Shown: positions 6,508 to 63,038 of the stretch, one piece after another
Numbering within the stretch: position 1 is the stretch's first letter
Layout: each line of letters begins with the position of its first letter
From: Dehalogenimonas sp. WBC-2
GTDB taxonomy: Bacteria; Chloroflexota; Dehalococcoidia; Dehalococcoidales; Dehalococcoidaceae
NCBI GenBank assembly: GCA_001005265.1
Contig: CP011392.1
Span: 1,111,902 to 1,175,901 of the forward strand
Direction: 5' to 3'
DNA: 64,000 nucleotides
The notes under the pieces: generated by a model
The model's database searches: none
What the model was told of the DNA's origin: nothing
The model's input: the letters and a program-made list of their open reading frames with translations, nothing else
Translations under genes and position numbers: made by a program

Positions 6508-6513
6508 TAGAAC

Positions 6514-6938: not shown

Positions 6939-6975
6939 GGATGGTGGAAGTAATAATCTTTCACTTCCACCATCC
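6939..6975 (-). terminator. Stem-loop downstream of the 6991..7821 gene
   Basis: 13-bp stem GGATGGTGGAAGT / ACTTCCACCATCC with an 11-nt loop, 15 nt after the stop codon. Confidence 0.5.
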
Positions 6976-6990
6976 CTCTGATTGAAAAAC

Positions 6991-7821
6991 TTACGCTAGT
7001 TCCCGATATCCATTAGCGTCTATCCATCCGCCTTGCACTAGTGTACCACTAAAATCGGACCAGTAATTCCAACCACCTGGCCAAGCGTTAACTTGTATTT
7101 TTTGCCAGTGGTTGTAATAGAGGTAACCACCTTCTCCAGGTGATGCAAAAGTAGCATCACAATTAATATGAACATCCCCATCAGAACCATTGGGATCCCA
7201 TCCACTGCCTAATGAGTACCTTTGCCACCAAGGAAAAACAGGATTAATCCATCCGTCATAAAACCAATCGCTTCCACCCCAGACATAACTGCCGTCATCA
7301 TAATAGTTCATTCCTGCTTTAACAGTAGTTATATCCCAAGAAACGACATCATTGTAGTCTTGTTCCGCATACATATGATAATGAATCGTGGAATCTAACA
7401 TACTATTCAAACGAGCAGCGTTTGCTAGATTAGGTTGTTCTAGTTTAGGTTCTTTGAGATCATAGGCTTTTGTTTGATCAGGGATTGGAGCATTGTCATA
7501 AGTGATTTGATCAACAATTAGTTCTCCATTGTCATTTACCTTTAATCTAACACTGGAGTGGCTAGCAGCGTCTGTTCCTGGAACAATGATACGAACATAT
7601 GGGAAATATACTCCTTCTTCACCTCCGTCCATCGTAACTATTTCTCCTGTTGCCACTACAGAACCGATGGTAACAGCTTTTTGCATACCGTCAACAATGA
7701 TGAAGATATGATTTGTATCCGGGGATTTTTCATCCGCCGCCGCCACACCGCCCCCACCCATCATCCCCACCAGGAGACTCAGTGACATGAAAACCATTAG
7801 AAACCGTTTCTTGAGCTTCAT
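6991..7821 (-). CDS. Secreted W/Y/G/D-rich protein of unknown function
   Basis: Start chosen at MKLKKRFLMVFMSLSLLVGMMGGGGVAAA (signal peptide), preceded by AAGGAAAG. The longer ORF to 7875 is rejected because the paralogous leader at 12755-12837 differs by indels that are not multiples of 3. Confidence 0.6.
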   Translation of the reverse strand: MKLKKRFLMVFMSLSLLVGMMGGGGVAAADEKSPDTNHIFIIVDGMQKAVTIGSVVATGEIVTMDGGEEGVYFPYVRIIVPGTDAASHSSVRLKVNDNGELIVDQITYDNAPIPDQTKAYDLKEPKLEQPNLANAARLNSMLDSTIHYHMYAEQDYNDVVSWDITTVKAGMNYYDDGSYVWGGSDWFYDGWINPVFPWWQRYSLGSGWDPNGSDGDVHINCDATFASPGEGGYLYYNHWQKIQVNAWPGGWNYWSDFSGTLVQGGWIDANGYRELA

Positions 7822-7938
7822 GGTATTGCTTTCCTTTCGTTTATTTAATGCCATTGGTTGCCAATTGAAACCCATTACACATTCATTGGAGTCCTCGCTT
7901 TTGCCTGTCGTGTATCGGTTATAGGCTGGTTATTCCCT

Positions 7939-8499
7939 CTATGCCCAAATTGACGACGCCCGGTCATTCCACCCCTGGAAGGTGAGCATAGTCCATGAGG
8001 AACCTGGCGGCATGTAGAAAGAGGAACCGCCGTAGTTTTCATAGTCATAAAGCGTGACGCCGCGGCTGTCACATATTTTGGCGGATGAAATGACGTTGTT
8101 AAACGTGCCCAGGTAATCCAATTCAGTACCGGGAGAAACGATCAGAGGCTCGCCTCCCACATAAAACACATCGACATAAAATTTGGAGGAGGTCAAACCG
8201 GTTGAGGTGATAACAACATTATCCAACGGGTCAAAGACGGGCCCGTACTCACTCTCCACAAAGGCTTCGAGCGCCTTCGCCGTGGTGAAGGCGTAGAGTG
8301 TCCCACTTTTATCCACGGTGAACCGTAGCCGCTGCCCGTCGAAAAGGTTGATCTCTTCAGACTCATACCTGACGCCGTCTATGATGACCGGGTGCATCGG
8401 TGCCACGTGTACAATAGCCGCCTTCAGCCTCGGCGGACATGGGGTACATGGCCTCAACCCCAGATGGTCTGAGGGGCTGTACTTTGGTATCATTGACAT
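7939..8499 (-). CDS. Beta/gamma-crystallin domain protein (probably missing its signal peptide because of a frameshift)
   Basis: The C-terminus has two Greek-key signatures: YVDVFYVGG...FNNVISS and YDYENYGG...WNDRASS (Y/FxxxxY/FxG ... N/D-x-x-SS). The 5' end overlaps the signal-peptide ORF 8363..8623 in another frame. Confidence 0.6.
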   Translation of the reverse strand: MSMIPKYSPSDHLGLRPCTPCPPRLKAAIVHVAPMHPVIIDGVRYESEEINLFDGQRLRFTVDKSGTLYAFTTAKALEAFVESEYGPVFDPLDNVVITSTGLTSSKFYVDVFYVGGEPLIVSPGTELDYLGTFNNVISSAKICDSRGVTLYDYENYGGSSFYMPPGSSWTMLTFQGWNDRASSIWA

Positions 8500-8623
8500 G
8501 TGAGTCCTTTTGGGTGTAATTTTCTGGCAAGGTAGCGGCAGAGGTGATACTGGATGCGGGAATTGCCAGTAAAATTGCGGCGCACAAACTCAAGAGCAGT
8601 TTCTTCATTTCTAATACCTCCAT
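8363..8623 (-). other. Signal-peptide-encoding 5' ORF fragment, likely the displaced N-terminus of the 7939..8499 gene
   Basis: MKKLLLSLCAAILLAIPASSITSAA is a clear Sec signal. The tail of this frame (AEAEGGYCTRGTDAPGHHRRRQV) looks non-native. Confidence 0.4.
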
Positions 8624-8647
8624 CGGTTATCTTTTATCACCGTGAAT

Positions 8648-8679
8648 AGCATAGCACCCCAAGATGACCGGGAGATGAC
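8648..8679 (-). promoter_or_regulatory. Promoter cassette P3: GGTCATCTCCCGGTCAT direct repeats followed by TGCTATGCT
   Basis: Plus-strand atgac at 8675-8679 and 8664-8668 (11-bp period). The -10 is agcata at 8648-8653. Lies in the 95-bp divergent region between the secreted-protein ORF and the response regulator gene. Confidence 0.6.
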
Positions 8680-8718
8680 CAACCCAAAGCTGGACTTAGG
8701 GTAAACTAAGGTACTGGT

Positions 8719-9393
8719 ATGAAAATTCTACTGGTCGAGGATGATCAAAAGCTCTGCCTGACTCTCCGGAAATCGTTGGGCGAAGCCGGGCACGTGGTTG
8801 ATTTTGCCCATGATGGCGAGACCGGACTCCTCTATGCCGCAACCTCGGAATATGATCTGCTCCTTTTGGACGTGATGCTGTCTGGTGAAAAAGACGGCAT
8901 TGATGTATGCCGGTCTTTAAGACAGCAAGGGTTCATCTTGCCTGTTATCATGCTGACCGGCAAAACCCACGTCAGAGACCGGGTGGACGGTCTGGACGCT
9001 GGGGCAGATGATTATGTCCTCAAACCATTTTCAATCACTGAACTGAAGGCGCGCATCAGGGCGCTGCAAAGAAAGCAGTTGCCGGGCACATCAACGCTCA
9101 TTGAAATTTCGGATGTCTCAATTGATACCGTCACTCACCTGGTCACAGCGGGCGGCAAGCCGGTAGACCTTCCGGCCATAGAATACCGGGCGCTGGAATA
9201 TTTCATTTCCAATCCGGCCAGGGTGCTCACCCGGACAATGCTGGAGGAGCATGTTTGGGGCGGAGAGACTGATAATAGGTCCAATACTGTGGAAGCGCTT
9301 ATAAAAAGGCTGCGCCAACACCTCGGCTGGGATGCCCTGACCGGCCCGCTTCAGACCGTACGTGGACAGGGTTACAGGCTAAAGCCGTCATGA
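8719..9393 (+). CDS. OmpR/PhoB-family response regulator
   Basis: 224 aa. Receiver domain (LVEDD, LLLDVMLSG, KPF) and winged-helix output ending VRGQGYRLK. Confidence 0.93.
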   Translation: MKILLVEDDQKLCLTLRKSLGEAGHVVDFAHDGETGLLYAATSEYDLLLLDVMLSGEKDGIDVCRSLRQQGFILPVIMLTGKTHVRDRVDGLDAGADDYVLKPFSITELKARIRALQRKQLPGTSTLIEISDVSIDTVTHLVTAGGKPVDLPAIEYRALEYFISNPARVLTRTMLEEHVWGGETDNRSNTVEALIKRLRQHLGWDALTGPLQTVRGQGYRLKPS

Positions 9394-10757
9394 GACTCTG
9401 GCTGAAAAGCGTCAAGTTCAAGCTGACGGTTTTATATTCATTAGTCCTCGTGGCTGTTCTGGTCGTTTTTGGCCTTATTTCCTGGGCGTTCTTATCCTTC
9501 GGTTTGTTCAATAACCTAGAGGACTCGTTGGCGGCAGATTTCTCCAGCGTTAAAGACAACATCCAAAGAAACACTGGTGACGACCTGCCTGAACTGCTTG
9601 CTGAACTGGAACATGGGCTTGCCGGTTCACTTTTTGTTTACGATATCGCATCGGCAACATTATTCGGAAACCATTTCGATACAGATGCTGTCCGAGCAGC
9701 CCTGATTGATTTTATACCTCTAGGCGAAACGGCTCAGATCAAAAAAAGTCCTGACGGTCAGTTTCGCATGTATATTGCGCGTTACGACCAGGAGGCGGCT
9801 CCAGACAGGCTCTTGATAATTACCCGTCATGCCGGTTACATCTACGACACGCTTGAGGATTACAAGAACGTTCTTTATACACTGATTCCTTTTGTCATCG
9901 TCATCGCCGGCGTCTCTGGTTACTTCCTTGCCAGCCGCTCTATGAAACAGGTGAAGGTGATCACCGCCACCGCCAACGGCATTGATCCCGCTGACCTCAA
10001 AGACCGCATCCCCGTCAGGGGCAATGATGAACTGGGGCAATTGTCGCGCACCCTCAACTCATCCTTTGACCGCATCCACGGCTTCATTGACCGGCAGCGG
10101 CAGTTCGCCGCAGACGCCACCCATGACCTGAAGGCGCCCCTGACCAATATCAAGACACAGACTGAGGTGGCGTTGGACCGGAACCGTCCGGGTGCAGAGT
10201 ATCGGGACACCCTGCGCTCCATCGCCGAGGACACGGAGCAGATGGAGTCCATCGTTGAAGACCTGCTGACCCTGGCCAGTCTGGATACTGCGCCGGATGC
10301 CCAACACAGCACTCGCTTTGATCTTTCCAATGTTGCTGAGGACGCCCTTGACGGCTGGGAAGTCCCCTGCGCCGCCAAGGGCTTGACCCTTGCCCGCCGC
10401 ATCCAACCGGATATTGAGATAACCGGGGAACCGCTGGACTTCCAGCGTGTCTTGGGTAATCTCCTGGAGAACGCCGTCAAGGCTACCAGCGCGGGTGGCG
10501 TCACCGTTACCATGAACGAGAGCGGCGGAATAATCACCCTGACCGTAACTGACACCGGTATCGGTATCGCCCCGGAACACCTGCAAAAGATATTCTGGCG
10601 TTTCTACCGGGTTGACCGTCATGCTAAGGGCAACGGTCTGGGTCTGCCCATCGTCCAAGGCATCGCGGAGATGTACGGCGGGCGGGTGGAGGTAGAGAGT
10701 GAGGTGGGGCGAGGCACGGTGTTTCGGGTGGTCATACCTGCTCAGGACAGAGCTTGA
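9390..10757 (+). CDS. Sensor histidine kinase (2 TM, extracytoplasmic loop, HAMP, HisKA, HATPase_c)
   Basis: ATGA start/stop overlap with the RR gene. H-box ATHDLKAPLT, N-box LLENAVKA, DTGIGI, GNGLGLPIV. Confidence 0.93.
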   Translation: MRLWLKSVKFKLTVLYSLVLVAVLVVFGLISWAFLSFGLFNNLEDSLAADFSSVKDNIQRNTGDDLPELLAELEHGLAGSLFVYDIASATLFGNHFDTDAVRAALIDFIPLGETAQIKKSPDGQFRMYIARYDQEAAPDRLLIITRHAGYIYDTLEDYKNVLYTLIPFVIVIAGVSGYFLASRSMKQVKVITATANGIDPADLKDRIPVRGNDELGQLSRTLNSSFDRIHGFIDRQRQFAADATHDLKAPLTNIKTQTEVALDRNRPGAEYRDTLRSIAEDTEQMESIVEDLLTLASLDTAPDAQHSTRFDLSNVAEDALDGWEVPCAAKGLTLARRIQPDIEITGEPLDFQRVLGNLLENAVKATSAGGVTVTMNESGGIITLTVTDTGIGIAPEHLQKIFWRFYRVDRHAKGNGLGLPIVQGIAEMYGGRVEVESEVGRGTVFRVVIPAQDRA

Positions 10758-11072
10758 GCCAGCCGCCAGATATTTTTCTTTCTCTCCTTTCTTCTTTCAG
10801 CCACATCTACACTGTGAATGTTTTATGGATTTCCAAAAGAACAGAATCACCACCAACAACAGTTATGGCAATAACCAAAACTGGCTCACTCATATTATTT
10901 CTGGGGTTGTTTTTAATTTAGACCTCCTAATCAGTCTCTTTTTCCACGATAACCTCTTTCGTAGTTCTTTAACTTGTTATTCGGCGATAATGATAAACCA
11001 TGATATATAACTAAAACTACAGAACTGGGACTGTTTATTTACCACTACCACTGCACAATAATTACTACCAAT

Positions 11073-11627
11073 CTATTTGGACGGAACAACCAGATCACCA
11101 ATCTTTACATCAAGTATTGGTGTGAAGGAAATATCCCCACTGGGTAGTGTATTAACAGAACTACCAGTATCGAAGATGACCACCAAAAATGGAATAATGG
11201 GTATTGAACCCCTTTTATTGCGGATTTCAAAATCAATATCTAATGTAATATTGTTGTTTGTAATACTAGCGGTGGTAATTTTGCCATCCTTGAAGGTGAC
11301 GCTAACGCTGTCTATAGCCAAACGAATTTGTGAATATTTGGCATTTCTCAAGTTATCCGTTGCTATAGAAAACTGAGAGTCTTTAATTTCCATGAGGTTG
11401 AAGGTGTTGCGAGTTTCATTAATTTCAATTACAGTCCATTTTTGCGCCGAAACTTCATAAACTTGAATACTTGATAATGTCACTGCCACAGCGTCTATAT
11501 CTTTATATAAAACATTTGAACTGACATAGATATCGATCTGTGACTTAGGAGAAATCAAACCACAACCTGAAAGAAGCATCAATGATAGTATTAGCAGTGT
11601 ATGAATTGAAGAAAGATACTTGGACAT
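11073..11627 (-). CDS. Lipoprotein, DUF4382-like
   Basis: 184 aa. Lipobox LLSGC. The pattern ...VTLSSIQVY...W..I......FNLMEI.......A...L....YSQIRL...SV.V matches my recollection of DUF4382. Confidence 0.6.
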   Translation of the reverse strand: MSKYLSSIHTLLILSLMLLSGCGLISPKSQIDIYVSSNVLYKDIDAVAVTLSSIQVYEVSAQKWTVIEINETRNTFNLMEIKDSQFSIATDNLRNAKYSQIRLAIDSVSVTFKDGKITTASITNNNITLDIDFEIRNKRGSIPIIPFLVVIFDTGSSVNTLPSGDISFTPILDVKIGDLVVPSK

Positions 11628-11654
11628 TTTGTTACCTCCTTAATTGGTGTGCGT

Positions 11655-11683
11655 GAATTGGGCGGGTTATCCCCGCCCAATTC
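11655..11683 (-). terminator. Stem-loop between the 11711..12754 and 11073..11627 genes
   Basis: 12-bp GC-rich stem GAATTGGGCGGG / CCCGCCCAATTC with a 5-nt loop. No clear U-tract on the minus strand. Confidence 0.4.
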
Positions 11684-11710
11684 AATTTATGCCGTAGACT
11701 TGATGGGTAT

Positions 11711-12754
11711 TCAGTTGTTCGTGTTCAATGTTACTGTGCTCCCCGACGTGGAAACGGACAAACCAGTGAGATTTGGGAAATTGTTACTGTTCACTGTTGT
11801 GCTGCAAGAGTAACTTACAGTTGAATCGTCATGTTTCAGTGCAATATTCGTAAAAACAGTGTCGCCTGGGACATCGCTATTATAGTAGATATTATACCCT
11901 TCGAGTGTCCAGTAATGGCGTAAACCAAATATACCATCATGTCCAAAACCTGTTTCGACGTAAAAACCCGATGTTTCACCGGTAGTGAGATTTTTGATCT
12001 GTACTCGCCATTCTTCCCACGGGACTATCTGATACATCCATCCTTCCATTTGGTCGTTAACACTGCAATCAATAGAAGAGGCTGCATAATCATTCCCAAA
12101 TGTTTGAGCAAACCACGCTCTTCCTGTCCATGCATGACTTCCTCCTTGATTCCATTCCAACACTGGTTGAATTATTTTATCTCCTGCCCATGGTTCAATG
12201 CCACTAAATAGAAAATCTATTGCAGAGGACGAAGGGTTCTGAGCAAATGATGGAACAATCCATTTACAATAGCTTTCATCTATGCGAAGGCCTGTGTCAT
12301 GCGCATCTTCTATCCACCCATTGCCCGCACTAGGTACTGTGAGACGGGAGACTTTACTTTTATCTCTAAAGGATTTAGGCTCGATAACCGTAAATAAAAC
12401 CTCTCCATTTTTAATGATAACGGTACTATTCCCCGTATCCCGAATGTGAACGTCGTTTGGCACGGAAAACACATGTGTCGCTATTTTTTCTCCCTGTGGA
12501 GTAATTATTGATGTTGCATTTGCATCATTCGTCTTGAAAAGGAGTTGGCCGTCGGACGAGAAAACATTGGTAATACCGGATTCAAGTTGTTCAACAATAG
12601 AGCCTTTAGGTATCTTCACCCCATCATTACCAGTGCTAAATCCATTGTTAACAACAACGTATTCAGTGGCCGCCGCCACACTGCCACCCCCCAGCATCCC
12701 CGCTAGGAGTGTCATTGTGCAGAAGACTGTCAAGAACCTTTTTTTGAATGACAT
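11711..12754 (-). CDS. Secreted protein, C-terminal half possibly a glutamic-peptidase (G1/eqolisin)-like beta-sandwich
   Basis: Start chosen at MSFKKRFLTVFCTMTLLAGMLGGGSVAAA, a signal peptide paralogous to that of the 6991..7821 gene. C-terminal motifs WIVPS, FSGIEPW, IIQPVLEW, KNLTTGETS, WTLEG and TVFTNIAL resemble the G1 family order. Confidence 0.6.
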   Translation of the reverse strand: MSFKKRFLTVFCTMTLLAGMLGGGSVAAATEYVVVNNGFSTGNDGVKIPKGSIVEQLESGITNVFSSDGQLLFKTNDANATSIITPQGEKIATHVFSVPNDVHIRDTGNSTVIIKNGEVLFTVIEPKSFRDKSKVSRLTVPSAGNGWIEDAHDTGLRIDESYCKWIVPSFAQNPSSSAIDFLFSGIEPWAGDKIIQPVLEWNQGGSHAWTGRAWFAQTFGNDYAASSIDCSVNDQMEGWMYQIVPWEEWRVQIKNLTTGETSGFYVETGFGHDGIFGLRHYWTLEGYNIYYNSDVPGDTVFTNIALKHDDSTVSYSCSTTVNSNNFPNLTGLSVSTSGSTVTLNTNN

Positions 12755-12892
12755 TTTAGCTTTCCCTTCGTTTATTTTAATACCGTTGGCTGCCAATTGA
12801 AGCATTTATACATTCATCGGAGTCCTCGCTTTCGCCATTCCCAGTTGACGTGATTTTGATTAACCAACATCATGGCTTTTAGGTCACGGAAG

Positions 12893-12924
12893 ATCATAGC
12901 ACTCCAACATGACCGGGAGATGAC
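12893..12924 (-). promoter_or_regulatory. Promoter cassette P4: GGTCATCTCCCGGTCAT direct repeats followed by TGCTATGAT
   Basis: Plus-strand atgac at 12920-12924 and 12909-12913. The -10 is atcata at 12893-12898. About 70 bp is nearly identical to P3. Confidence 0.6.
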
Positions 12925-12960
12925 CAGCCCAAAGCTGGATTTAGGGTAAACTAAGGTACT

Positions 12961-13413
12961 ATGGCCATTTTATACGCTGCCCTCGGTCCGCAGGGACGCG
13001 GCATGCCGTGTCCACCCGTAAACAGTGTTTTTCCACAGCAAATCGTAAGGTACCATCTCGTCCGCCCACCACATCATTCTCCGCGAAACCGGAGGGGAGT
13101 TGTAGTGTATTTCGTAGGGTCTCTCGTAGGGGCCGATCTGAGATCGGCCCTATCCCCAGCCCTGTCCGGCGCAAACCGAAGTGTTTTCTTCTTCTAATTC
13201 GTCATCTTGGAAGCTTGTCCCCCCTCTCCGTTGACGGAGAGGGGGCTAGGGGGTGAGGTTTCGCATCTGCCGGGTTAAACTTGAAGCCTGTCCCCATAGC
13301 GCGACATCGGTATGCTATTCCCCAAGTATGTCTGCCGGATTGATCTTCTTTACAATGTTATTGACCATGTATCCCCCCTCTCCGTTGACGGAGAGGGGGC
13401 TAGGGGGTGAGGT
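12961..13413. repeat. Intergenic mosaic of palindromic repeat units
   Basis: Hairpins GGACGCGGCA/TGCCGTGTCC (12994-13013) and TAGGGGCCGATCT/AGATCGGCCCTA (13127-13152). Two identical 42-nt units cccccctctccgttgacggagagggggctagggggtgaggt at 13218-13259 and 13372-13413. Confidence 0.85.
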
Positions 13414-13455
13414 AGACTCCCCAAAAATAAATGCCCAAAAAGTTCCAAAACCCCA

Positions 13456-13484
13456 TTGACAATCACAATCATGAATACTACTAT
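13456..13484 (+). promoter_or_regulatory. Promoter module copy A (TTGACA-17 nt-TACTAT)
   Basis: ccaaaaccccaTTGACAatcac is shared almost exactly with copy B (29689) and copy C (46243). GGAG at 13507-13510 precedes the TTG start at 13517. Confidence 0.6.
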
Positions 13485-13516
13485 ATATCTATTAATTATT
13501 AGAACAGGAGAACACA

Positions 13517-13948
13517 TTGAACCAACCAAACGAATCCCCGGTCAAACGCAAGCGCGGCGCTCAGCCGGGCAATAAGAACGCCAGAACCCACGGCTTTTAC
13601 TCAGCATACGCCCGCTGCTGCCGTGCGGCTAAAGAAGAAAAGATCCACCGGGCCGCCGATATTGCCCGTATGGATCGGGATATCGCCGCCGCCCGGGCTA
13701 AGCTGGCGGCGGTCGTCCGCCACACCCCGGATAATTACCGCGTTATCCTGCTGGCAGTAGGCTCGGTCGCCCGGCTCTACTCTGCCAGATACCACCGCGG
13801 CGAGGCTATAAAAACTGCCGTCCTGGACGCCCTCAGAGAGTCCAGGCTGCCGCCGCGTCTAACCAGTGCGGCCCTGGAGGCGGCGGTGGTGGCGGCCAAT
13901 CTTTCACCGGCGCCGTCATTAGATTCAAATATCCAATCCCACGATTAG
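13517..13948 (+). CDS. Hypothetical basic protein with N-terminal GNxNAxxHGFYS motif
   Basis: 143 aa, TTG start 6 nt after GGAG. KRKRGAQPGNKNARTHGFYSAY, then an Ala/Arg-rich helical region. No family confidently recognised. Confidence 0.55.
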   Translation: MNQPNESPVKRKRGAQPGNKNARTHGFYSAYARCCRAAKEEKIHRAADIARMDRDIAAARAKLAAVVRHTPDNYRVILLAVGSVARLYSARYHRGEAIKTAVLDALRESRLPPRLTSAALEAAVVAANLSPAPSLDSNIQSHD

Positions 13949-45100: not shown

Positions 45101-45391
45101 GCCATGATTGAAGTGGCCGGGTTGCCCGTAAAGCGTATTTCTAAAAAATTATCTGAAGGCCATCCTAATATCGTGGACATGGTTAGAAACGGAACGGTTA
45201 CCGGTGTCATCAACACCTCCACCGGCGGTCGCGTGCCGCTCAGGGATGGTTTCCATATTCGCCGCGCTGCCGCTGAGAAACGTGTTCCCTGCTTTACCTC
45301 CCTTGACACGGCCCGTGTAGCCATTGACGCCCTGGCCGACAGGGGCCACAATTACAGTATTAAATCAGTCCAGGAGTATCGTAATGGCTGA
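42170..45391 (+). CDS. carB: Carbamoyl-phosphate synthase large subunit
   Basis: 1073 aa. Duplicated ATP-grasp halves ([22 protein letters not shown] and [20 protein letters not shown]) and a C-terminal MGS-like domain. Confidence 0.97.
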
Positions 45392-46172
45392 GGCCAAACC
45401 ATTTCTAGGAACTGCCACGGTACTTTCAAACGATACCGTAATGCCCGGCGTCTTCCAACTGCGCCTCCTGTGCCCCAACATCGCCACAACCGCCAAACCT
45501 GGCCAGTTCGTCATGCTTAAATGCGGTGATAATCACTTGTTGCGGAGACCGATAAGTATCTCGGACGCTGACTCTTCCAGCGGTCAAATAGGTTTGCTCA
45601 TTGCCAGCATCGGTAAGGGTACCGGCTGGCTGGCGCGCCGCTCGCCCGGTGAAGAACTGGACATCCTCGGCCCGCTCGGTAATGGCTTTATCATTAATGA
45701 AAACGCCGGTAAATTGCTGCTCATCGGTGGCGGCATGGGCATTGCTCCACTCAATTTCCTGGCTAAAAAGGCGAGAGCGTCCGGCAAAAAGGTAACACTG
45801 GTGCTCGGTGCCCGCACCGGCGAACTCCTCTGTCCATCATCTCACCTACCGGAAGTGACGGAATGCGTCTTTTACACTGAAGACGCCTCAACAGGTATTC
45901 AGGGACGCGTTACAGACTGCCCCGACAACTACGTCGCTGAAGCTGCCCAGGTCTTTGCCTGCGGCCCGCTGCCGATGTACCGGGCGCTGGTGAAAGACCC
46001 CCGTTTCAGCACCAAATCAATGCAAATATCGCTGGAAGTCAGGATGGCTTGCGGCATAGGGCTATGCTACGGCTGCACCGTCAACACAAAACACGGCTTG
46101 AAACAGGTGTGCCAGGACGGCCCGGTATTCAAGATAGGCGACATCATCTGGGAAGAATTAGCCGACCTTTAG
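45384..46172 (+). CDS. pyrK: Dihydroorotate dehydrogenase electron-transfer subunit PyrK
   Basis: ATG at 45384 overlaps the carB stop (ATGGCTGA). FAD/NAD ferredoxin-reductase fold ([17 protein letters not shown]) and a C-terminal 2Fe-2S motif [11 protein letters not shown]. Confidence 0.9.
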
Positions 46173-50291: not shown

Positions 50292-51842
50292 TTGGGGGAA
50301 AAGATAATTCCAACCCATTTTAATAATGAGGGATTTTACCAGACCATTTTTGAGAACGCCACAGATGTTATTCTACTGTGGGAATATATTGAACGAGAAA
50401 ATATATTCCGGATTATTGAAGCCAATCCCATTGCTTGTGAACGCTATGGCTATACACATGAAGAATTTATCGGACTTAGCGCAAAAGACCTGAATACAAC
50501 TGAGAGTTATGAAACCAGCAAAGCAATAGCCACACGGCTGTTAGAAATTTGTCAGGCAAGATTTGAACTTGTTCATGTAACCAGAGACGGGCTTCCCATT
50601 CCTTCCGAAGTGTCATCACATCTTTTTAAATTTAATGGTAGGATTTTAGTTGTCTCGGTAGCGCGTGATATTGCGGAGAGAAAAAAACAGGAAGCTACTA
50701 TCCGGCAACTGGCCAATTACCCATTATCTAATCCTAATCCTGTCTTAAGTGTCACATCTGAAGGTGAAATTATTTTCGCGAATCCCGCAACTGAACCACT
50801 TCTTGAATGCTGGGGAACGCAGCAGGGCGGAAAGGTGCCATCATCGCTGCAAAAAACTATCGCTGAAATATACAAATTGAATAGCAAGACAAATATTGAA
50901 TTCTCTTGTGGTAGTCAGATTTTTTCCCTGACTATCCAACCTAATATTAACGAGGGCTATCTTAACATCTATGCTCTTGATATCACCGAACCGCGCCAAA
51001 AGCAGGCCGAAATAGAAAGCTATCAGCAACGACTTGAGGAATTAGTGGCAGTCCGTACCCAGGCTCTGAACGAAGAGATTGCCACGAGGCGCAAGACAGA
51101 AGATGAATTAAAGATATTGTACCAGCGGGAGCAGGAATTAAGCTCGGCTCTTAAACAACAAATTGATGAGCGCGTCCTGTTCACCCGAGCCCTGGTTCAT
51201 GAACTAAAGACTCCGTTAACTCCCTTGTTGACTGCATCTGATTTCTTGGAAGACCACCTTACAGATGAAATATCTCTGGGTTTTGCCAGAAACATTCACG
51301 CTGGGGCTCTTAACATGGAAAAACGTGTTAACGAACTCCTTGACCTGGCTCACGGCGAAGTGGGTACTCTCAAACTTACCTATAGTAATTTCAACCTGGT
51401 AGATCTTCTGTCAGAGATTGGCGAATACGTAAAACCGGAGGCTATGCGTCGCGGTCAAAAACTTGAGCTTGATGTACCCGTCCAGCCAGTATTATTACAA
51501 GCTGACCCTGACCGTTTGAGACAGGTGATCACTAACCTGCTCTCTAATTCATTCAAGTTCACCCGCCGAGGTGGTCAAATCAAGTTGCGTGCCATCACAG
51601 AGCCTGATGCTGCCATCATATCGGTAACTGATACCGGTTCAGGTATAGATGCCGCTGATCTACCCTACTTGTTCCAGCCATACCACCTTGGTCAAAAATC
51701 AGAAAAAAGCAGGCTAAGCGGCCTCGGTCTTGGGCTTGTTCTCTCGCGGATGATCGTAGAATTGCACGGTGGACAAATTTGGCTCAAGAGTGCCAAAGGT
51801 AAAGGCAGTACCTTCAGTTTTAAAATACCATATACCAAGTGA
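50292..51842 (+). CDS. PAS-domain sensor histidine kinase (cytoplasmic)
   Basis: TTG start. PAS-like N-terminal domains, a coiled linker, H-box VHELKTPLT, then NLLSNSFKFT, DTGSGI and GLGLGLVLS. Confidence 0.9.
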   Translation: MGEKIIPTHFNNEGFYQTIFENATDVILLWEYIERENIFRIIEANPIACERYGYTHEEFIGLSAKDLNTTESYETSKAIATRLLEICQARFELVHVTRDGLPIPSEVSSHLFKFNGRILVVSVARDIAERKKQEATIRQLANYPLSNPNPVLSVTSEGEIIFANPATEPLLECWGTQQGGKVPSSLQKTIAEIYKLNSKTNIEFSCGSQIFSLTIQPNINEGYLNIYALDITEPRQKQAEIESYQQRLEELVAVRTQALNEEIATRRKTEDELKILYQREQELSSALKQQIDERVLFTRALVHELKTPLTPLLTASDFLEDHLTDEISLGFARNIHAGALNMEKRVNELLDLAHGEVGTLKLTYSNFNLVDLLSEIGEYVKPEAMRRGQKLELDVPVQPVLLQADPDRLRQVITNLLSNSFKFTRRGGQIKLRAITEPDAAIISVTDTGSGIDAADLPYLFQPYHLGQKSEKSRLSGLGLGLVLSRMIVELHGGQIWLKSAKGKGSTFSFKIPYTK

Positions 51843-51851
51843 GGAGAGAAA

Positions 51852-52532
51852 ATGAAAATCCTGATCGTCGAAGATGATGTCGCCATTGTGGAGTTGGTTA
51901 GCCTGTGTTTAAAGGTCAGCTGGCCGGATGCAATAATAATATTCAGCGGCCTGGTGGAAGAAGGCATAGAGCTTGCCAAGGCTGAATCACCGGATCTTAT
52001 TATACTGGATTTAGGATTGCCCGATAAAAGCGGCCTGGAACTTCTTAAAGAGGTCCGCAAAACATCTTCAGTCCCGATAATAATTCTTACCGTACGAAAT
52101 GAAGAATCAGATGTCGTCCGCGGACTGGAACTCGGGGCGGATGACTATATTACCAAGCCATTCCGCCAGATGGAATTCGTTTCCAGAGCCAAAGCTCTAC
52201 TGCGTCGTCAAAATACTAACGATAGCAACTCACCGGTTAATATCGGCCCCTTCCGTTTTTCAGGCTCCCGGCGTCAGGTTGGTATTGATGGAAAGACTAT
52301 TAAACTCACTACTACCGAAGGAAAAATTCTTTATAGCCTGACTCAAAATAATGGTAAACCGGTATCGCATCAGGATCTGTCGTTAACGATATGGGGTGAG
52401 AAAACGCCGGATGCGGCCAACTCTATCCGCGTTCATATTCGAAATTTACGCCAAAAACTAAAGGGTGTCGGTCTTTCAGATATCGTGGCCACCAAGTCAG
52501 GAGCCGGATATTTCCTTAGAAAATTGCCCTGA
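51852..52532 (+). CDS. OmpR/PhoB-family response regulator
   Basis: Receiver domain (IVEDD, IILDLGLPD, TKPF) and a winged helix ending TKSGAGYFLR. Confidence 0.92.
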   Translation: MKILIVEDDVAIVELVSLCLKVSWPDAIIIFSGLVEEGIELAKAESPDLIILDLGLPDKSGLELLKEVRKTSSVPIIILTVRNEESDVVRGLELGADDYITKPFRQMEFVSRAKALLRRQNTNDSNSPVNIGPFRFSGSRRQVGIDGKTIKLTTTEGKILYSLTQNNGKPVSHQDLSLTIWGEKTPDAANSIRVHIRNLRQKLKGVGLSDIVATKSGAGYFLRKLP

Positions 52533-58070: not shown

Positions 58071-58467
58071 TTAAGTGATGATAGAATATAGCATAGCTTT
58101 ACGAACAGGGCAAAAACAAAATAGGAAACACTCATTGTAATATAGACAATATTATTCAACGTTGTTGCTAGTGGAGACTTCTAGGCGGACTGCCAACCGT
58201 ATGCTAAAAAGTTACGCTTTGATATTGGGTAGTATTCGACACTTTGATGTCGTAATAGATTGATGTGCCGTAACTAATCGATTTAACTTCCTTATCCAGC
58301 TGATTTAGTTTCAGATCGCACTTTATTTTTGCCATTGGTTGCCAAAATAATGCTAGTCAAGTACTAATACTTATGATATACTCATGGAACTATTTAACCC
58401 GTAAAAAATAGCGGGTTAATCTGCCTAAAATCAGAATGCGGCTACTATTCTTTAAAAGGGGGAGTTA

Positions 58468-60786
58468 ATGCCGGAAAACTCAGTTCTTATCGTCGACAGC
58501 GATCCCGCTACCAAGGACACCGCCGCTTGGCTCAAAGGCGCTGGCTTTCGCGTAACTACCGCATCAACAGGTGAAGAAGCTCTAAACTTGATTGACAATC
58601 AGGATTTTAGCGTAATGCTTTTAGACATGCGACTACCAGGGAAACATGGACTGGGTGTGCTACGTGAAGTCAAAGTTAAACGTCCATGGCTACAGACTAT
58701 TGTTACTACTGACCATCCCTCAGTTGAATCAGCGACTGAAGCCTTAAAACAAGGGGCTGTTGATTACCTGGTTAAACCGGTATCTCCCCAAGATCTAGCA
58801 CAACTAGTTAAGGATACTATTAAATCGGCAGCCAAACAAAAAATGGCAGCCGTTCAAATCAAATCCAAGGCGGCACCTAGCAAAATGCTTCCTCAAGCCA
58901 CCTTCGTGATTAGCTGTGACAGCCTTAAAAATTTGGTCAACAGTCTTATCAAAGAGCGTGAAGCTATCGGTGTGAAGACCAAGAATGGCAAATTCACTTA
59001 TGGCAAGATCAAGAACTACGATGAACTAATGCTGGATTACGATGTCACTGTTAATCCCCCCACAGCCTTTTTTATCCCTGCCTGTGAGACCATTCTGAAA
59101 TATAAACTCGGAGATAACCCTGAAATTGCACCAGTGACCGATATCACACCACGTGTCCTCATTGGTGTTCACCCTGATGACATTAATGCCATCAACCTCC
59201 TTGACGAAGTTTTCATGACTGGCAATCCTGATCCAAACTACACTGCCCGCAGGCAGAATACCCTCATCATCGGTGTGGACGTACTCACTCCGCAACCAAC
59301 TTCTTTTGCCCCGAGTATGGGCTCACATCTGGCCGAAAGTGGTTTTGATTTACTGCTCACCGATATTGGTAATGTCAGTTATATGGTCACTGTTGGTTCC
59401 GATGCAGGGGCCCAGGTGCTGGCAAAATACGCTCAAGTACGTGAACCGACTATTGCCGAAACAGCACGTCAAAAACAGGTCAGGGATGAAGCATTATCCA
59501 AATACCGGCTCTTTTTGGATATGCCCAGAGAAAAGATCCCCCATCTTTTGGAAAACAATTACGACAATCCCTACTGGATGTCGCGGTCTGAGGGTTGTCT
59601 AAACTGCGGTTCTTGCATTATGGTCTGTCCCACCTGCTTTTGCTTTGATGTACAGGATGATATTTCACTGAACATGATTGACGGTGAGCGGGTTCGCAAA
59701 CCCGATGGCTGTATGCTGGTTGATTTCTCAAAAGTGGCTGCCGGTGCCAACTTCCGGGGCGATAAAATGAGCCGTTTCCGCCACCGCATGTACCACAAAG
59801 GCAAGTATATCCTGGACCGGTACGGCAAATTCGGCTGTGTCGGTTGCGGCCGGTGCACCGTTACATGTCTGGCCGAAATCGCCAGCCCGCTTGAAGCATA
59901 TAATTCCATCGCTGACAGCGAAAAGAACAAGGAAAAAGCGCGACGGACAATCACAAATACCCGCCCCCAGCCGGACCTTTATCTGCCGCACCTGGCCAAC
60001 ATAGTTAAAACTACGTCGCTTTCAAATCGGGAGAAGCTTTTTGAGTTTAAGCTCAAAGACGGCACTGCTCTCGGTCATCGGCCAGGGCAGTTCGTTGAGG
60101 TCTATGTCTTCGGGATCGGTGAATCACCCATCTCTCTGACTTCGTCACCCACTCGCGACCACACTTTTGAAGTGGCGGTGCGGAATGTCGGCAATGTCAC
60201 CGGCGCACTGCACCGTCTTGAAGAGGGGTCTGCAGTGGGCATACGCGGCCCATTTGGTAACGGTTTTCCGCTGGAACAGATGGAAGGTAAGGATCTGCTT
60301 TTCATTGCCGGCGGCATTGGTATTTTTCCGTTGCGGTCCCTGATTCAATACGTCCTTGATCGGCGTGAAGATTACGGTAAAATCAACCTGTTGTTCGGCT
60401 CCCGTTCACCTTCTGAGCGCGTCTTCGCAGACGACATGGCTCAATGGGCCGCCGCTCCTGATGTTACTTTATTGGAAACTGTGGATAAAGGTGATGAGAC
60501 CTGGACAGGCAACGTCGGCGTTATAACCACGCTTATCCCTAAAATTCAATTTGACCCCAGGCGAACAGTGGCTGTGGTGGTTGGGCCACCGATCATGTAC
60601 CGCTTCGTCATCAACGAACTTAAAAAACGCGATGTGGCCGATGATAACATCATCGTCTCCTTGGAACGCAAGATGAAATGCGGTGTCGGTAAATGTGGTA
60701 ACTGCCAGATCAACGGCGTATATGTCTGTCAGGAAGGCCCGGTTTTCAGTATGACCCGGCTACGAACTTTAAGGGAGGCCATCTAA
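58468..60786 (+). CDS. Fusion protein: response-regulator receiver domain + 4Fe-4S (sulfhydrogenase beta/AsrA-like) + FAD/NAD(P)/2Fe-2S (gamma/AsrB-like) diaphorase module
   Basis: Residues 1-120 form a REC domain (IVDSD, LLDMRLPG, TTD, VKPV). The middle has CLNCGSCIMVCPTCFC and CVGCGRCTVTC. The C-terminus has RPGQFVEV, SPISLTS, FIAGGIGIFPL and CGVGKCGNCQ. Confidence 0.85.
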   Translation: MPENSVLIVDSDPATKDTAAWLKGAGFRVTTASTGEEALNLIDNQDFSVMLLDMRLPGKHGLGVLREVKVKRPWLQTIVTTDHPSVESATEALKQGAVDYLVKPVSPQDLAQLVKDTIKSAAKQKMAAVQIKSKAAPSKMLPQATFVISCDSLKNLVNSLIKEREAIGVKTKNGKFTYGKIKNYDELMLDYDVTVNPPTAFFIPACETILKYKLGDNPEIAPVTDITPRVLIGVHPDDINAINLLDEVFMTGNPDPNYTARRQNTLIIGVDVLTPQPTSFAPSMGSHLAESGFDLLLTDIGNVSYMVTVGSDAGAQVLAKYAQVREPTIAETARQKQVRDEALSKYRLFLDMPREKIPHLLENNYDNPYWMSRSEGCLNCGSCIMVCPTCFCFDVQDDISLNMIDGERVRKPDGCMLVDFSKVAAGANFRGDKMSRFRHRMYHKGKYILDRYGKFGCVGCGRCTVTCLAEIASPLEAYNSIADSEKNKEKARRTITNTRPQPDLYLPHLANIVKTTSLSNREKLFEFKLKDGTALGHRPGQFVEVYVFGIGESPISLTSSPTRDHTFEVAVRNVGNVTGALHRLEEGSAVGIRGPFGNGFPLEQMEGKDLLFIAGGIGIFPLRSLIQYVLDRREDYGKINLLFGSRSPSERVFADDMAQWAAAPDVTLLETVDKGDETWTGNVGVITTLIPKIQFDPRRTVAVVVGPPIMYRFVINELKKRDVADDNIIVSLERKMKCGVGKCGNCQINGVYVCQEGPVFSMTRLRTLREAI

Positions 60787-61535
60787 TGAGACCTAAAGTG
60801 GCTTTTTTCGATTTCACCAGCTGCGAAGGCTGCCAGCTTGACGCCTTAAACTTGGAGGTCGGCGAGTTGTTAGGACTTCTGGGCGCAGTGGATATTGTCA
60901 ATTTCCGTGAGATAAAGACTGACCGCTCCGATGACTACGATATTGCTTTCATTGAAGGCAGTATAACCAAGGAATCCGAAATCCCCCGCATTCAGGCTAT
61001 CCGCAACCAGGCAAAAGTATTGGTAGCACTCGGTGCTTGTGCCTGTACCGGAGGCATTAACTGCATGAAAAATGCCTATCCTATGGAAGACCTCCTTAAA
61101 GGGGTTTACGGTGAATGCGCCGAGTACTATAACACTATCCCGGCACGCCCAATCAGCGCCGTGGTGCCGGTGGATGCTTACATACGTGGCTGTCCGCCAA
61201 CCACTGCGGAATTCGTTAAAGTAGTTAAATCTCTCCTATTAAGCAAAAGACCGGATATCCCCAATTACCCGGTCTGCACCGAGTGCCGTATGGCCGGTAA
61301 CGTCTGCGTCTTTCAACGCGGGGGTACCTGCATTGGACCTGTTACTCGTGGCGGTTGCGAGGCACTATGCGTCAGCGCCGGACGTTTCTGCTGGGGTTGC
61401 CGTGGCCTGGTGGATGATCCCAATACCAACTCTGAGAAAGACATCCTGGCACGTTACGGCCTCACTATAGATCAGATACTAGAACGTTTCAAAATTTACA
61501 ACTCCTATTCGGAGGTCTCTAAATGTCAGAGCTAA
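60786..61535 (+). CDS. [NiFe] hydrogenase small (delta-type) subunit, group 3
   Basis: TAATG overlap with the upstream gene. MRPKVAFFDFTSCEGCQLD, GACACTGG, GCPP and C-terminal Cys clusters are typical of short group 3 small subunits. Confidence 0.88.
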   Translation: MRPKVAFFDFTSCEGCQLDALNLEVGELLGLLGAVDIVNFREIKTDRSDDYDIAFIEGSITKESEIPRIQAIRNQAKVLVALGACACTGGINCMKNAYPMEDLLKGVYGECAEYYNTIPARPISAVVPVDAYIRGCPPTTAEFVKVVKSLLLSKRPDIPNYPVCTECRMAGNVCVFQRGGTCIGPVTRGGCEALCVSAGRFCWGCRGLVDDPNTNSEKDILARYGLTIDQILERFKIYNSYSEVSKCQS

Positions 61536-62794
61536 AAATCAAGGTTAACCAACTCACACGTGTCGAGGGGCACGGAAATATTCACTTGGAAGCTACCGAT
61601 GGCAAGCTAGATAGAGTGCTGTGGGAAGTCACCGAATCACCCCGGTTCTTTGAGTGGATGCTCAAAGGCCGTAACTACGACGACGTGTCCACCATCTCCT
61701 CCCGCATCTGCGGCATCTGTTCCATTTCCCATACCACCGCCTCCCTCCAGGCCACCGAGTCTGCCTTCGGCGTTAAGCTGACCGAACAGGCATGGCTTCT
61801 CAGAAAACTTCTCTATAATGCCGAAATGCTAGAAAGCCACGTATTGCACGTGCTATTCCTCATCGCACCTGACTTCCTGGGAGCTGATTCGGTCATTCCC
61901 CTGGTGGCCACTCACGGCGATATTATCGTTATGGCGGTACGTTTGAAGAAACTGGCTTATAATCTGGCCGATATTCTTGCCGGACGCAAGACTCATCCCA
62001 TCACCCCTATCGTCGGTGGCTGGAGCAAATTGCCAGACATTGACGAACTCAAAGCTATCCGCGAACGGTTGGAAAAAGCCATGGAAGATATGGACACCAT
62101 GGTAGCCGTCGTCAAATCGGTGGCGCCAATGATCCCTGATTTCCAGCGTCCCACCGAATATATCGCCCTTAAAGACTCCAAGGAGTATTCCTTTATCACC
62201 GGCAAGATCGCCTCCAGCGATGGCGGTACTTTCCCCCTGGAAGATTATAAACAGATAACTAACGAGTTCTGCGTGCCTCATTCTTCGGCAAAATTTGCCA
62301 AGCACAAGCGGGATTCATATATGGTGGGAGCTCTATCCCGCTTCAACCTTAACTCCGAACAGCTTTTACCCAAAGCTAAAAAAGCTGCCAAAGAGTTAGG
62401 CATAAAAGCCCCTATCCATAACCCGTTCTTTATCTCCGTAGCACAGACGGTAGAAACTGTGCACGCCATGGAAGACGCTATCAATATCATCGATAAACTG
62501 TTAGCCAGAGGCCTCCATGAAGAAGAGGTCAAGGTCAAACCACGCGCCGGCCGCGGTGTCGGTATTGTAGAAGCGCCGCGCGGCATACTCATCCACGATT
62601 ATACCTACGATGAGAGCGGCAACATCGTTTCGGCTAACTGCATCATTCCCACCGGTCAGAACCACCTGTCTATCCAGAAAGATTTCGACGCACTGGCACC
62701 TACCATCCTTGACAAACCCGAGGACGAAATCCGGCACACTCTGGAAATGCTGGTGCGCGCCTATGACCCATGTATCTCCTGTTCAGTCCATTAA
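61523..62794 (+). CDS. [NiFe] hydrogenase large (alpha) subunit, group 3b-like
   Basis: 423 aa. RVEGHG, L1 motif RICGICSISH, and C-terminal DPCISCSVH, which is the very end of the protein. Confidence 0.92.
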   Translation: MSELKIKVNQLTRVEGHGNIHLEATDGKLDRVLWEVTESPRFFEWMLKGRNYDDVSTISSRICGICSISHTTASLQATESAFGVKLTEQAWLLRKLLYNAEMLESHVLHVLFLIAPDFLGADSVIPLVATHGDIIVMAVRLKKLAYNLADILAGRKTHPITPIVGGWSKLPDIDELKAIRERLEKAMEDMDTMVAVVKSVAPMIPDFQRPTEYIALKDSKEYSFITGKIASSDGGTFPLEDYKQITNEFCVPHSSAKFAKHKRDSYMVGALSRFNLNSEQLLPKAKKAAKELGIKAPIHNPFFISVAQTVETVHAMEDAINIIDKLLARGLHEEEVKVKPRAGRGVGIVEAPRGILIHDYTYDESGNIVSANCIIPTGQNHLSIQKDFDALAPTILDKPEDEIRHTLEMLVRAYDPCISCSVH

Positions 62795-62810
62795 CGACCA
62801 GACAGCAGTT

Positions 62811-62850
62811 AAATGGGGGGCGTTCTGTTGAAACAGAACGCCCCCCATTT
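62811..62850 (+). terminator. Strong (bidirectional-capable) terminator hairpin
   Basis: AAATGGGGGGCGTTCTGTT-ga-AACAGAACGCCCCCCATTT. A perfect 19-bp stem followed by actTTaaTTTT. Confidence 0.85.
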
Positions 62851-63038
62851 ACTTTAATTTTCATTCCGCGTAATTGTGGCCTCCCCTTACTCATAATGAT
62901 GAAGACTCTGCAACAGCATCACCGGCTTATCAAGACGGGTAGAAGGACGATTCTGGGTTCGGACTAAGCGAGTACTAGCGCCCCCAACCCTTTTTATAGC
63001 ATAATATAGCTACTTCTCGATTGTAAGAAAGGTCTTCT

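Follow-up and report, generated by a model that had tools for sequence, protein, structure and literature searches.

In Dehalogenimonas sp. WBC-2, a member of a genus of bioremediation-relevant organohalide respirers, a single gene joins a two-component receiver (REC) domain to the beta (HydB-like) and gamma (HydG-like) electron-transfer modules of a [NiFe] hydrogenase. The gene occupies 58468..60786 on the forward strand of the DNA analysed here, a stretch of 64,000 nt from contig CP011392.1 (positions 1,111,902 to 1,175,901; hereafter the window), and encodes 772 aa plus a stop codon. We consider it somewhat probable that the protein is a response regulator with a hydrogenase as its output, and that in Dehalogenimonas this design has been reduced to an atypical, possibly kinase-independent form. 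At the level of the family, a genuine two-component pathway is suggested by invariant receiver Asp and Thr residues with a nearly invariant Lys, an adjacent kinase orthogroup, a tandem REC paralogue, and repeated fusions to the beta subunit. The hydrogenase is taken as the output because the order REC-linker-effector is the normal one for response regulators. The Dehalogenimonas receiver is regarded as atypical because its pocket is altered and its expected partners are not adjacent; judging from sequence, it is most likely not a canonical phospho-switch.

The three-part anatomy given in the preliminary description, a receiver followed by AsrA/HydB-like and AsrB/HydG-like modules in 772 aa, is borne out by open reading frame (ORF) translation, Pfam, and NCBIfam, and every domain family it named for a search was matched, Fer4 in the form of Fer4_22. 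The reading frame is uninterrupted, and its ATG start has AAGGGGGAG in front. The NtrC/CheY-type receiver spans residues 4-120 (58477..58827, forward strand, as are all parts of the gene) and was delimited by Pfam PF00072, CheY residue mapping, and AlphaFold. The N-terminal domain passes the receiver profile search above the gathering score (Response_reg, residues 6-114, E 1.6e-22), and its model shows the (beta-alpha)5 pattern, with five strand-helix repeats at pLDDT 78-89. Its closest solved or curated relatives are the receivers of NtrC1, NtrC, DctD, LuxO, and FixJ (E 1e-16 to 1e-11), which share the long alpha-5 helix running into the linker. In contrast to these regulators, the fusion carries no AAA+ or DNA-binding output, and in Dehalogenimonas the positions equivalent to CheY D13 and to the residue after the conserved Thr (T+1) are substituted. 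Linker 1 (residues 121-150; 58828..58917) comprises the end of the alpha-5 helix (107-127) and then a Lys/Ala/Gln-rich tether. It includes a poorly conserved, flexible region of ~25 residues, with pLDDT below 50 at residues 123-137, and its mean column identity of 0.63 is the lowest among the segments of the homologue alignment.

The enzyme part begins with the HydB/ShyB/AsrA-like beta module (residues 151-475; 58918..59892; NCBIfam ShyB 7.5e-61, PDB 9nez_B E 9e-45), which consists of an N-terminal alpha/beta domain and a Fer4_22 dicluster domain (377-471, 7e-30). Its invariant cysteines are 377, 380, 383, 387, 390, 392, 415, 457, 460, 463, and 467. A joining linker (residues 476-505; 59893..59982), composed of a helix at 474-496 and then a stretch of low AlphaFold confidence, leads to the HydG/ShyC/AsrB-like gamma module (residues 506-772; 59983..60783; Pfam, PDB 9nez_C E 2e-59). 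The latter contains an FAD-binding barrel (FAD_binding_6, 511-598), an NAD(P)-binding domain (NAD_binding_1, 612-714), and a C-terminal 2Fe-2S site at C738, C743, C746, and C754 (DHODB_Fe-S_bind, 733-765). In NCBIfam, residues 150-472 match the sulfhydrogenase beta models ShyB and HydB, with AsrA weaker, and residues 499-768 match the gamma models ShyC and HydG as well as AsrB. All NCBIfam scores, for the fusion modules and for the delta and alpha subunits alike, fall below the equivalog cut-offs. The beta subunit of Pyrococcus furiosus soluble hydrogenase I (SHI) aligns with residues 172-473 and its gamma subunit with residues 500-762, with every cluster-binding Cys kept. A Foldseek search with the full-chain AlphaFold model gave target-normalised TM-scores of 0.78 for beta and 0.84-0.86 for gamma (9nf0_C, 9nez_C). 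Both linkers are collinear across homologues and conserved in length.

Two overlapping genes follow, so the earlier placement of the fusion as the first gene of a hydrogenase operon stands. The small (delta) subunit gene (60786..61535, forward strand, 249 aa; Pfam Oxidored_q6, NCBIfam HydD 2e-56 and ShyD 3.5e-43) starts 1 nt inside the fusion-gene stop, and the large (alpha) subunit gene (61523..62794, forward strand, 423 aa; NCBIfam ShyA 1.8e-86 and HydA 5e-79) overlaps it by 13 nt. The fusion, delta, and alpha genes are probably translationally coupled. Upstream, a consensus scan found a promoter-like site, TAGTCA-N17-TATACT with a TG-extended -10 element (58354..58382, forward strand), whose function is inferred from this match. 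Downstream lies an intrinsic-terminator-like hairpin (62810..62851, forward strand; consensus scan) with a 19-bp stem, 10 G-C pairs, and a T-rich tail. A three-gene operon headed by the fusion is concluded from the overlapping genes, the terminator-like hairpin, and the promoter-like site. The promoter-like hexamers sit within a conserved block of ~35 nt (58354-58386), CTAG(T/C)CAAG(T/G)ACTAAT(A/C)CTTATGATATACTCA, which is near-identical in the window and in the Dehalogenimonas loci L009 and L010 and lies about 85-120 nt upstream of the start codon. It is the only conserved block in an intergenic region of 400 nt that has otherwise diverged among the three loci, and it may also be a binding site for a regulator. 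An Rfam scan of the operon and its leader returned no match.

The large subunit places the enzyme among group-3b hydrogenases. The ShyA and HydA models outrank VhuA (7e-49) and FrhA (3e-42), and the best solved relatives are the cytosolic NiFe hydrogenase of Thermococcus kodakarensis (5yxy, 2e-69) and the alpha subunit of P. furiosus SHI (9nez_D, 6e-69), followed by Mvh (6e-60), with F420-reducing enzymes far weaker. Both Ni-Fe ligand motifs are present, SRICGICS (RxCGxC) and DPCISCSVH (DPCxxCxxH). The partners are of the HydB-type beta and HydG-type gamma kind expected of group 3b, in the order beta-gamma-delta-alpha, here with beta and gamma fused and a receiver in front. On sequence grounds, the operon is assigned to a divergent, distant group-3b NAD(P)-linked hydrogenase, for which H2:NAD(P)+ activity is predicted and all cofactor ligands are kept. 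The product of the fusion gene would then be the electron-transfer half of this cytoplasmic enzyme, with a receiver tethered to the N-terminus of beta. Two other identities were considered and rejected. An F420-reducing hydrogenase (Frh, group 3a) is contradicted by FrhA at 145 bits (cut-off 392) and FrhG at 53 (cut-off 245), by the lack of FrhB, and by the HydB/HydG-like partner. Anaerobic sulfite reductase AsrABC is contradicted by AsrB at 218 bits (cut-off 289) and AsrA at 112 (cut-off 323), and by downstream genes that encode hydrogenase subunits and not AsrC.

The distribution of the fusion defines a compact family. Each of the 120 best homologues (759-798 aa; identity 58-100%, coverage 99-100%) carries PF00072 together with PF17179, PF00175, and PF10418, and the full REC-HydB-HydG architecture was found in 130 of the retrieved sequences, which derive from NCBI, JGI, ENA, and Logan assemblies and include complete Dehalogenimonas genomes. 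Named sources are only Dehalogenimonas spp., Dehalococcoidales, and Chloroflexota metagenome-assembled genomes, a taxonomy that rests on few source names among the retrieved matches. Homologues from Dehalogenimonas spp. are 82-96% identical to the window protein, and a scan of a genome collection with that protein returned four loci, all from Dehalogenimonas. An exhaustive search of 1.84 billion cluster representatives detected the triple fusion in one further cluster at 50% identity (P0121); since a single such representative carries it, the triple-fusion clade is tight.

Receiver active sites were compared after alignment to CheY, and family positions are given in CheY numbering. Among 121 triple fusions from outside Dehalogenimonas, D12, D13, and D57 are Asp and T87 is Thr in every sequence, K109 is Lys in 119 and Arg in two, and T+1 is Ala in 120 and Gly in one. 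The same acidic residues, Thr, and Lys are present in all 19 proteins in which the receiver is followed by a histidine kinase core and then HydB, each with Gly at T+1. The window receiver has D10, S11 at the position of CheY D13, the phospho-acceptor D53, T81, D82 at T+1, Y100, K103, and P104. Presence of the phospho-acceptor Asp, the Thr, and the Lys, as the preliminary description held, is thus confirmed, together with Y100 and P104. Across the 120 homologues, D53 and T81 are conserved in all, K103 in 118, and Y100 in 119. The survey of the acceptor that had been proposed gives the same answer for the triple fusions, with Asp in 121/121 sequences outside Dehalogenimonas and in 9/9 within the genus.

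The claim of an apparently intact acidic pocket, by contrast, does not hold. The motif IVDSD corresponds to D10-S11-D12 and aligns with CheY D12-D13-F14, so that the second, Mg-binding Asp is replaced by Ser and the window receiver lacks the Mg2+-binding acidic pair of CheY D12/D13. The motif TTD corresponds to T80-T81-D82, with Asp at T+1 where 120 of the 121 orthologues outside the genus have Ala. These changes characterise the genus. In nine Dehalogenimonas receivers, D12, D57, T87, and K109 are retained throughout, D13 is replaced by Ser in five and by Ala in four, and T+1 is always Asp, a residue found there in none of the 162 other family members examined. All nine also have Asp instead of Glu directly behind the acidic pair, and at T+2 Tyr gives way to His in eight and to Ser in one. 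The position of CheY D13 is a direct Mg2+ ligand, and its loss usually abolishes or greatly reduces receiver phosphorylation. The receiver T+1 residue governs access to the phosphorylation site. D12 of the window receiver might compensate for the lost Mg-binding Asp; more speculatively, the T+1 Asp could make up for the lost ligand or imitate phosphorylation. Fixed differences separating the genus from the other sequences are densest in the receiver (13 of 120 positions, 10.8%, versus 2.7-7% elsewhere in the protein), and those around the active site include E12D, I80T, A82D, and Y83H. Identity within the genus is 84% for the receiver, 82% for the N-terminal domain of HydB, and 88% for HydG. 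From these patterns, the Dehalogenimonas receiver looks like the result of a functional shift followed by purifying selection, not of decay.

Gene neighbourhoods supply the second line of evidence. They were compared in 94 fetched loci with a custom hidden Markov model annotation, and nine distinct triple-fusion loci lie outside Dehalogenimonas. A histidine kinase is found 31-1629 bp from the operon in six of the nine (L003/L004, L006, L015, L017, L018, and L046), with an N-terminal transmembrane region followed by HisKA and HATPase_c. The hydrophobic, apparently transmembrane N-terminal region is conserved, as judged by eye, in the four kinases whose start codons were called by the source. 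The six kinases are mutual full-length orthologues (37-69% identity over 296-410 aligned aa). Against the other kinases compared, including both kinases of the window, identity drops to 24-31% over shorter alignments of ~220-320 aa. A stand-alone REC protein is encoded immediately upstream of the fusion gene in five of the six kinase-bearing loci, with gaps of -112 to +12 nt, and is 60-81% identical to its best-matching fused receiver (74% for the pair within L003). In L015, the kinase, stand-alone REC, and REC-beta-gamma genes are co-directional with overlapping ends. A further feature of L003 (2814-9989), shared with L004, is a complete operon for an Hdr/MvhD(FlpD)/group-3c-like NiFe hydrogenase with a HycI gene, located immediately upstream of the stand-alone REC gene and the fusion operon. 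Because this Hdr-type operon adjoins the fusion operon, two cytoplasmic hydrogenases cluster around the same signalling genes there.

Neither an orthologue of this kinase nor a REC paralogue was found in the window or in the flanks of L009 and L010. As stated in the preliminary description, no cognate kinase gene is adjacent, and the nearest kinase (50292..51842, 516 aa) ends 6.6 kb upstream and is paired with its own OmpR-type regulator (51852..52532). A second OmpR-type two-component pair occupies 8719..10757. L010, unlike L009, also has the pair of 50292-52532, placed 4.7-5.4 kb upstream of its hydrogenase operon. Both window kinases are paired with OmpR-type regulators, and neither is an orthologue of the operon-linked kinase of the relatives.

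The preferred reading can be put as a sequence of steps. In the family at large, the membrane histidine kinase beside the operon would phosphorylate both the fused receiver and the stand-alone REC paralogue, the latter serving as a competitor, a phosphate sink, or a (dimer) partner. The phosphorylation state would then switch the passage of electrons between NAD(P)H/FAD and the NiFe site. Alternatively, it might change how the enzyme oligomerises, by way of the long alpha-5 helix that is characteristic of NtrC1/DctD-type receivers. The outcome would be post-translational control over the exchange between the NAD(P)H pool and H2, whether H2 is produced or consumed. In Dehalogenimonas, the receiver would be retained as an atypical module that is locked, that works independently of a kinase, or that receives its phosphoryl group from acetyl phosphate or from an orphan or distant kinase. 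Among the three roles offered in the preliminary description, control by phosphorylation is thus the best supported at family level, with Asp and Thr invariant, Lys in 119/121, the kinase orthogroup, and the REC paralogue.

Several points weigh against the preferred reading. In three of the nine loci outside Dehalogenimonas (L001/L002, L005, and L016), no kinase was found near the operon. In Dehalogenimonas, the search for the kinase and REC paralogue covered 64 kb of a ~1.7-Mb genome and the flanks of L009 and L010, so that a distant cognate kinase is possible. With a different loop geometry, the D10-S11-D12 stretch might nonetheless provide two carboxylates. The full-chain AlphaFold model folds the individual domains, with a pTM of 0.45 and no confident docking of the receiver onto the enzyme; given this value and the disordered linker, docking and regulatory mechanism are unconstrained. 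REC-less beta-gamma fusions lie nearby in a neighbour-joining tree of the HydB domain (for example P0122, 53% identity), a tree built without bootstrap and with deep nodes unresolved, and the existence of such close relatives indicates that the receiver is dispensable for the enzyme. In proteins that combine receiver, kinase core, and HydB, the direction of information flow is ambiguous. Architecture, conservation patterns, neighbourhoods, and the orthology of the neighbouring kinases are direct observations; phosphotransfer and an effect of the receiver on enzyme activity are what we infer from them.

The strongest competitor is a canonical phospho-switch in Dehalogenimonas as well, in which D53 still accepts a phosphoryl group, from acetyl phosphate or an orphan or distant kinase, the enzyme is regulated as in the relatives, and S11 and D82 only tune the kinetics. 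It is consistent with retention of D10, D53, T81, Y100, K103, and P104, with an extra Asp at residue 12 that might substitute in the pocket, with the purifying selection implied by 84% receiver identity within the genus, and with the small share of the genome that was inspected. We regard it as unlikely, however, given that the CheY-D13 equivalent is Ser or Ala in all nine sequences, a kind of change that as a rule abolishes or greatly reduces phosphorylation, that the T+1 Asp has no counterpart among the other 162 members, and that neither the kinase orthogroup nor the REC paralogue of the relatives occurs in the window or the flanks of L009 and L010.

Further receiver fusions bear on the direction of signalling. 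Besides REC-less beta-gamma fusions (598-656 aa, including P0122), the best 150 representative matches hold REC-HydB proteins without gamma (463-504 aa) and REC-HisKA-HATPase_c-HydB proteins (740-746 aa). A profile search added more of the latter two types, with named sources in Planctomycetota or Phycisphaerae; the REC-HisKA-HATPase_c-HydB proteins P0137, P0145, P0279-P0291, and P0302-P0310 measure 731-754 aa. This fusion is the first gene of a [REC-HK-HydB]-HydG-HydD-HydA operon in L007 (150-2390), L013 (8001-10241), and L037, where HK denotes the histidine kinase core; the L013 gene is identical to L037 5983-8223. In L013, two Cache-HAMP kinases and two single-domain REC genes precede it. 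L014 holds a [REC-HydB]-HydG-HydD-HydA operon, and on the shorter contigs L008, L022, and L089, the first two or three genes of an operon of this kind are visible before the contig ends. As a separate observation, the L014 cluster (1374-13755) encodes REC-Pyr_redox_2 (629 aa), REC-HydB, and REC-FolD (THF_DHG_CYH, 430 aa) along with two REC-only proteins, a Cache-HAMP kinase, and a sigma-54 regulator, and five of its six receivers are paralogues of the beta-fused type (50-66% identity). Another unusual N-terminal partner appears in P0264 (479 aa), a match from the representative library in which ATP-grasp_5 is fused to a HydB-like module.

These architectures lend some weight to the redox-sensing device named in the preliminary description, in which the hydrogenase is the input and H2 or the NAD(P)H redox state sets the behaviour of the attached receiver or kinase core, feeding a phosphorelay. 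REC-HisKA-HATPase-HydB proteins head full hydrogenase operons, extra single-domain receivers and further kinases cluster around their genes, and a paralogous stand-alone REC adjoins the triple fusion. We nevertheless think this quite improbable, and do not favour it for the window protein. An N-terminal receiver followed by an effector is the standard order from regulator to output, the kinases that accompany the Dehalococcoidia fusions have a conserved transmembrane sensor region of their own, and the neighbourhood holds no conserved output partner, DNA-binding or otherwise. Moreover, the complete catalytic diaphorase is kept, and the enzyme groups with group 3b, not with the group 2b sensors.

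A pure scaffold, meaning a family-wide pseudo-receiver for dimerisation or assembly of the hydrogenase with no signalling role, is more doubtful still. The alpha-5 helix does run into the linker as in dimerising NtrC1/DctD-type receivers, the Dehalogenimonas pocket is altered, and enzymes without a receiver are viable. On the other hand, the invariance of the phospho-site Asp and Thr, and near-invariance of the Lys, in 121 sequences from outside the genus is hard to explain without phosphoryl chemistry, and the kinase orthogroup adjoins the operon in six of nine loci, co-directionally in one. The degenerate scaffold of the preliminary description is a live option specifically for the window protein, with D13 changed to Ser or Ala, T+1 changed from Ala to Asp, and neither the kinase nor the REC paralogue adjacent. 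Finally, the suspicion that the 772-aa ORF is an artefact, in which a sequencing error, a frameshift, or misassembly joined a response-regulator gene to separate hydB and hydG genes, is refuted by the same uninterrupted architecture in all 130 sequences, among them the 120 top homologues and the complete genomes, and by linkers that are collinear and conserved in length.

The large subunit itself is unusual in Dehalogenimonas. In the window (3' end at 62765-62794), L009, and L010, its last residue is the His of DPCISCSVH, and it has no C-terminal extension; of the 54 further group-3b large subunits in the comparison, only that of L063 lacks an extension of 5-11 residues. A HycI-type protease is also encoded in about half of the extension-bearing loci, within the DNA fetched, and no HycI-type endopeptidase gene was found near the operon in the window. 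Taken together, the sequences suggest that maturation of the Dehalogenimonas large subunit may be independent of a protease. Genus-wide genome streamlining has been reported for Dehalogenimonas (PMC13390414), and the missing extension fits a general trimming of accessory functions in such small, streamlined genomes.

In other lineages, REC-less four-gene group-3b operons often run beta-gamma-delta-alpha-HycI-REC-kinase (L034 9903-12780, L041 5837-8801, L048, L052, L056, and L066). The REC gene after hycI encodes a single-domain protein of 125-138 aa, and the kinase is PilS-like, with six transmembrane segments, with or without GAF, and then HisKA and HATPase. HycI and the receiver are fused in L013 (13377-14174) and L037, by Pfam HycI and Response_reg, and apparently in L062 (6679-7533), a hint that two-component control may be tied to the protease of maturation. 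A Rosetta-stone link, with the receiver after hycI being of the fused type, was considered and rejected, as identity is only 25-38%; it is a separate family, tied to the HycI-REC fusions.

A wider proposal is advanced tentatively, as plausible and somewhat short of probable: group-3b hydrogenases in several bacterial phyla (those named being Chloroflexota/Dehalococcoidia and Planctomycetota) may be hard-wired into dedicated two-component phosphorelays, with the Dehalogenimonas form naturally 'locked' or kinase-independent. In such relays, the beta subunit would carry a receiver or a receiver and a histidine kinase core, and a membrane kinase and a single-domain REC would adjoin the operon. In other lineages, members of the second REC family would either be joined to the HycI maturation protease in one chain or be encoded behind it.

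Known systems provide several points of comparison. The P. furiosus soluble hydrogenase I, or sulfhydrogenase (9nez, 9nf0), and the T. kodakarensis enzyme (5yxy) have the same four modules in the same beta-gamma-delta-alpha order, match beta, gamma, and alpha best in sequence and fold, and share all cluster ligands. P. furiosus and many relatives encode beta and gamma in separate genes, and the P. furiosus SHI structure (beta 367 aa, gamma 292 aa) agrees with the earlier statement that they are separate subunits without a signalling domain in the characterised enzyme. The Dehalogenimonas enzyme, by contrast, comes from a bacterial mesophile, has beta and gamma fused with a receiver in front of beta, lacks a C-terminal extension on its large subunit, and scores below the NCBIfam equivalog cut-offs in all four parts. 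The beta module is also homologous to AsrA (2e-32) and the gamma module to AsrB (1.5e-64). AsrABC differs in that no AsrC sirohaem subunit occurs here, the partners are NiFe hydrogenase subunits, and scores remain below the Asr cut-offs. An ordinary paralogue of the gamma module, a PyrK-like HydG homologue of 282 aa, is encoded elsewhere in the window (45324-46172), after carB in a pyrimidine biosynthesis cluster.

As regards signalling, response regulators with enzymatic outputs (the CheB methylesterase, the diguanylate cyclases PleD and WspR, RpfG, and PorX) have the same N-terminal layout of receiver, linker, and enzyme, and the relatives of the fusion resemble this class in having a dedicated kinase nearby and a canonical phospho-site. 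Unlike this class, the output of the fusion is a multi-cofactor redox subunit of a hetero-oligomeric hydrogenase, and the pocket of the window copy is atypical. Physical coupling of a [NiFe] hydrogenase to two-component signalling is known from the group 2b systems HoxBC-HoxJ and HupUV-HupT. There, a sensory hydrogenase associates non-covalently with the kinase, and a separate regulator turns the signal into a transcriptional output. In the present case, a catalytic group-3b enzyme carries the receiver covalently, or, in other lineages, a kinase core. To our knowledge, the described regulation of [NiFe] hydrogenases is essentially transcriptional or exerted at maturation.

The operon has been catalogued before under a different name. 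Table S1 of PMC13390414 lists a three-gene operon (Dehly_0927-0929) as an 'F420-reducing hydrogenase homolog', and the Vhu-Hdr cluster as a separate set of eight genes. Dehly_0927-0929 is very probably the same three-gene operon as that of the window. The large subunit of D. formicexedens, 89% identical to that of the window, carries the F420-reducing name in the database. The published label 'Cofactor/Coenzyme F420-reducing hydrogenase homolog' is probably a misannotation of an NAD(P)-type group-3b operon, since the large subunit scores 291 bits with ShyA against 145 with FrhA and the partner is a flavin/NAD(P) diaphorase and not FrhB. Identity with the 'Vhu' hydrogenase of Dehalococcoidia was also rejected, given the separate listing of Vhu-Hdr in that table and the lack of any D. 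mccartyi sequence among the top 120 matches to the fusion or the large subunit. PMC13390414 makes no mention of the receiver domain. A full-text literature search, with subscription journals mostly outside its reach and an earlier mention therefore possible, turned up no account of a hydrogenase subunit that carries a receiver. The domains are noted in automatic annotations, such as 'response regulator receiver protein' or 'NAD(P)H-flavin reductase/CheY-like chemotaxis protein'. An argG-like gene begins ~300 nt past the terminator hairpin.

Group-3b enzymes are widespread and bidirectional, and their physiological role is unclear. If a receiver on the diaphorase does act with an adjacent kinase, cells would switch such an enzyme on and off directly. 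The partner kinase and variants of D53 would offer a handle for finding the signal to which the hydrogenase responds. The canonical relatives and the S11/D82 variant of Dehalogenimonas would form a natural comparison of the role of the receiver. Should the phosphorelay proposal be correct, these proteins would represent an undescribed class of response regulators with H2/NAD(P)H redox catalysis as their output.

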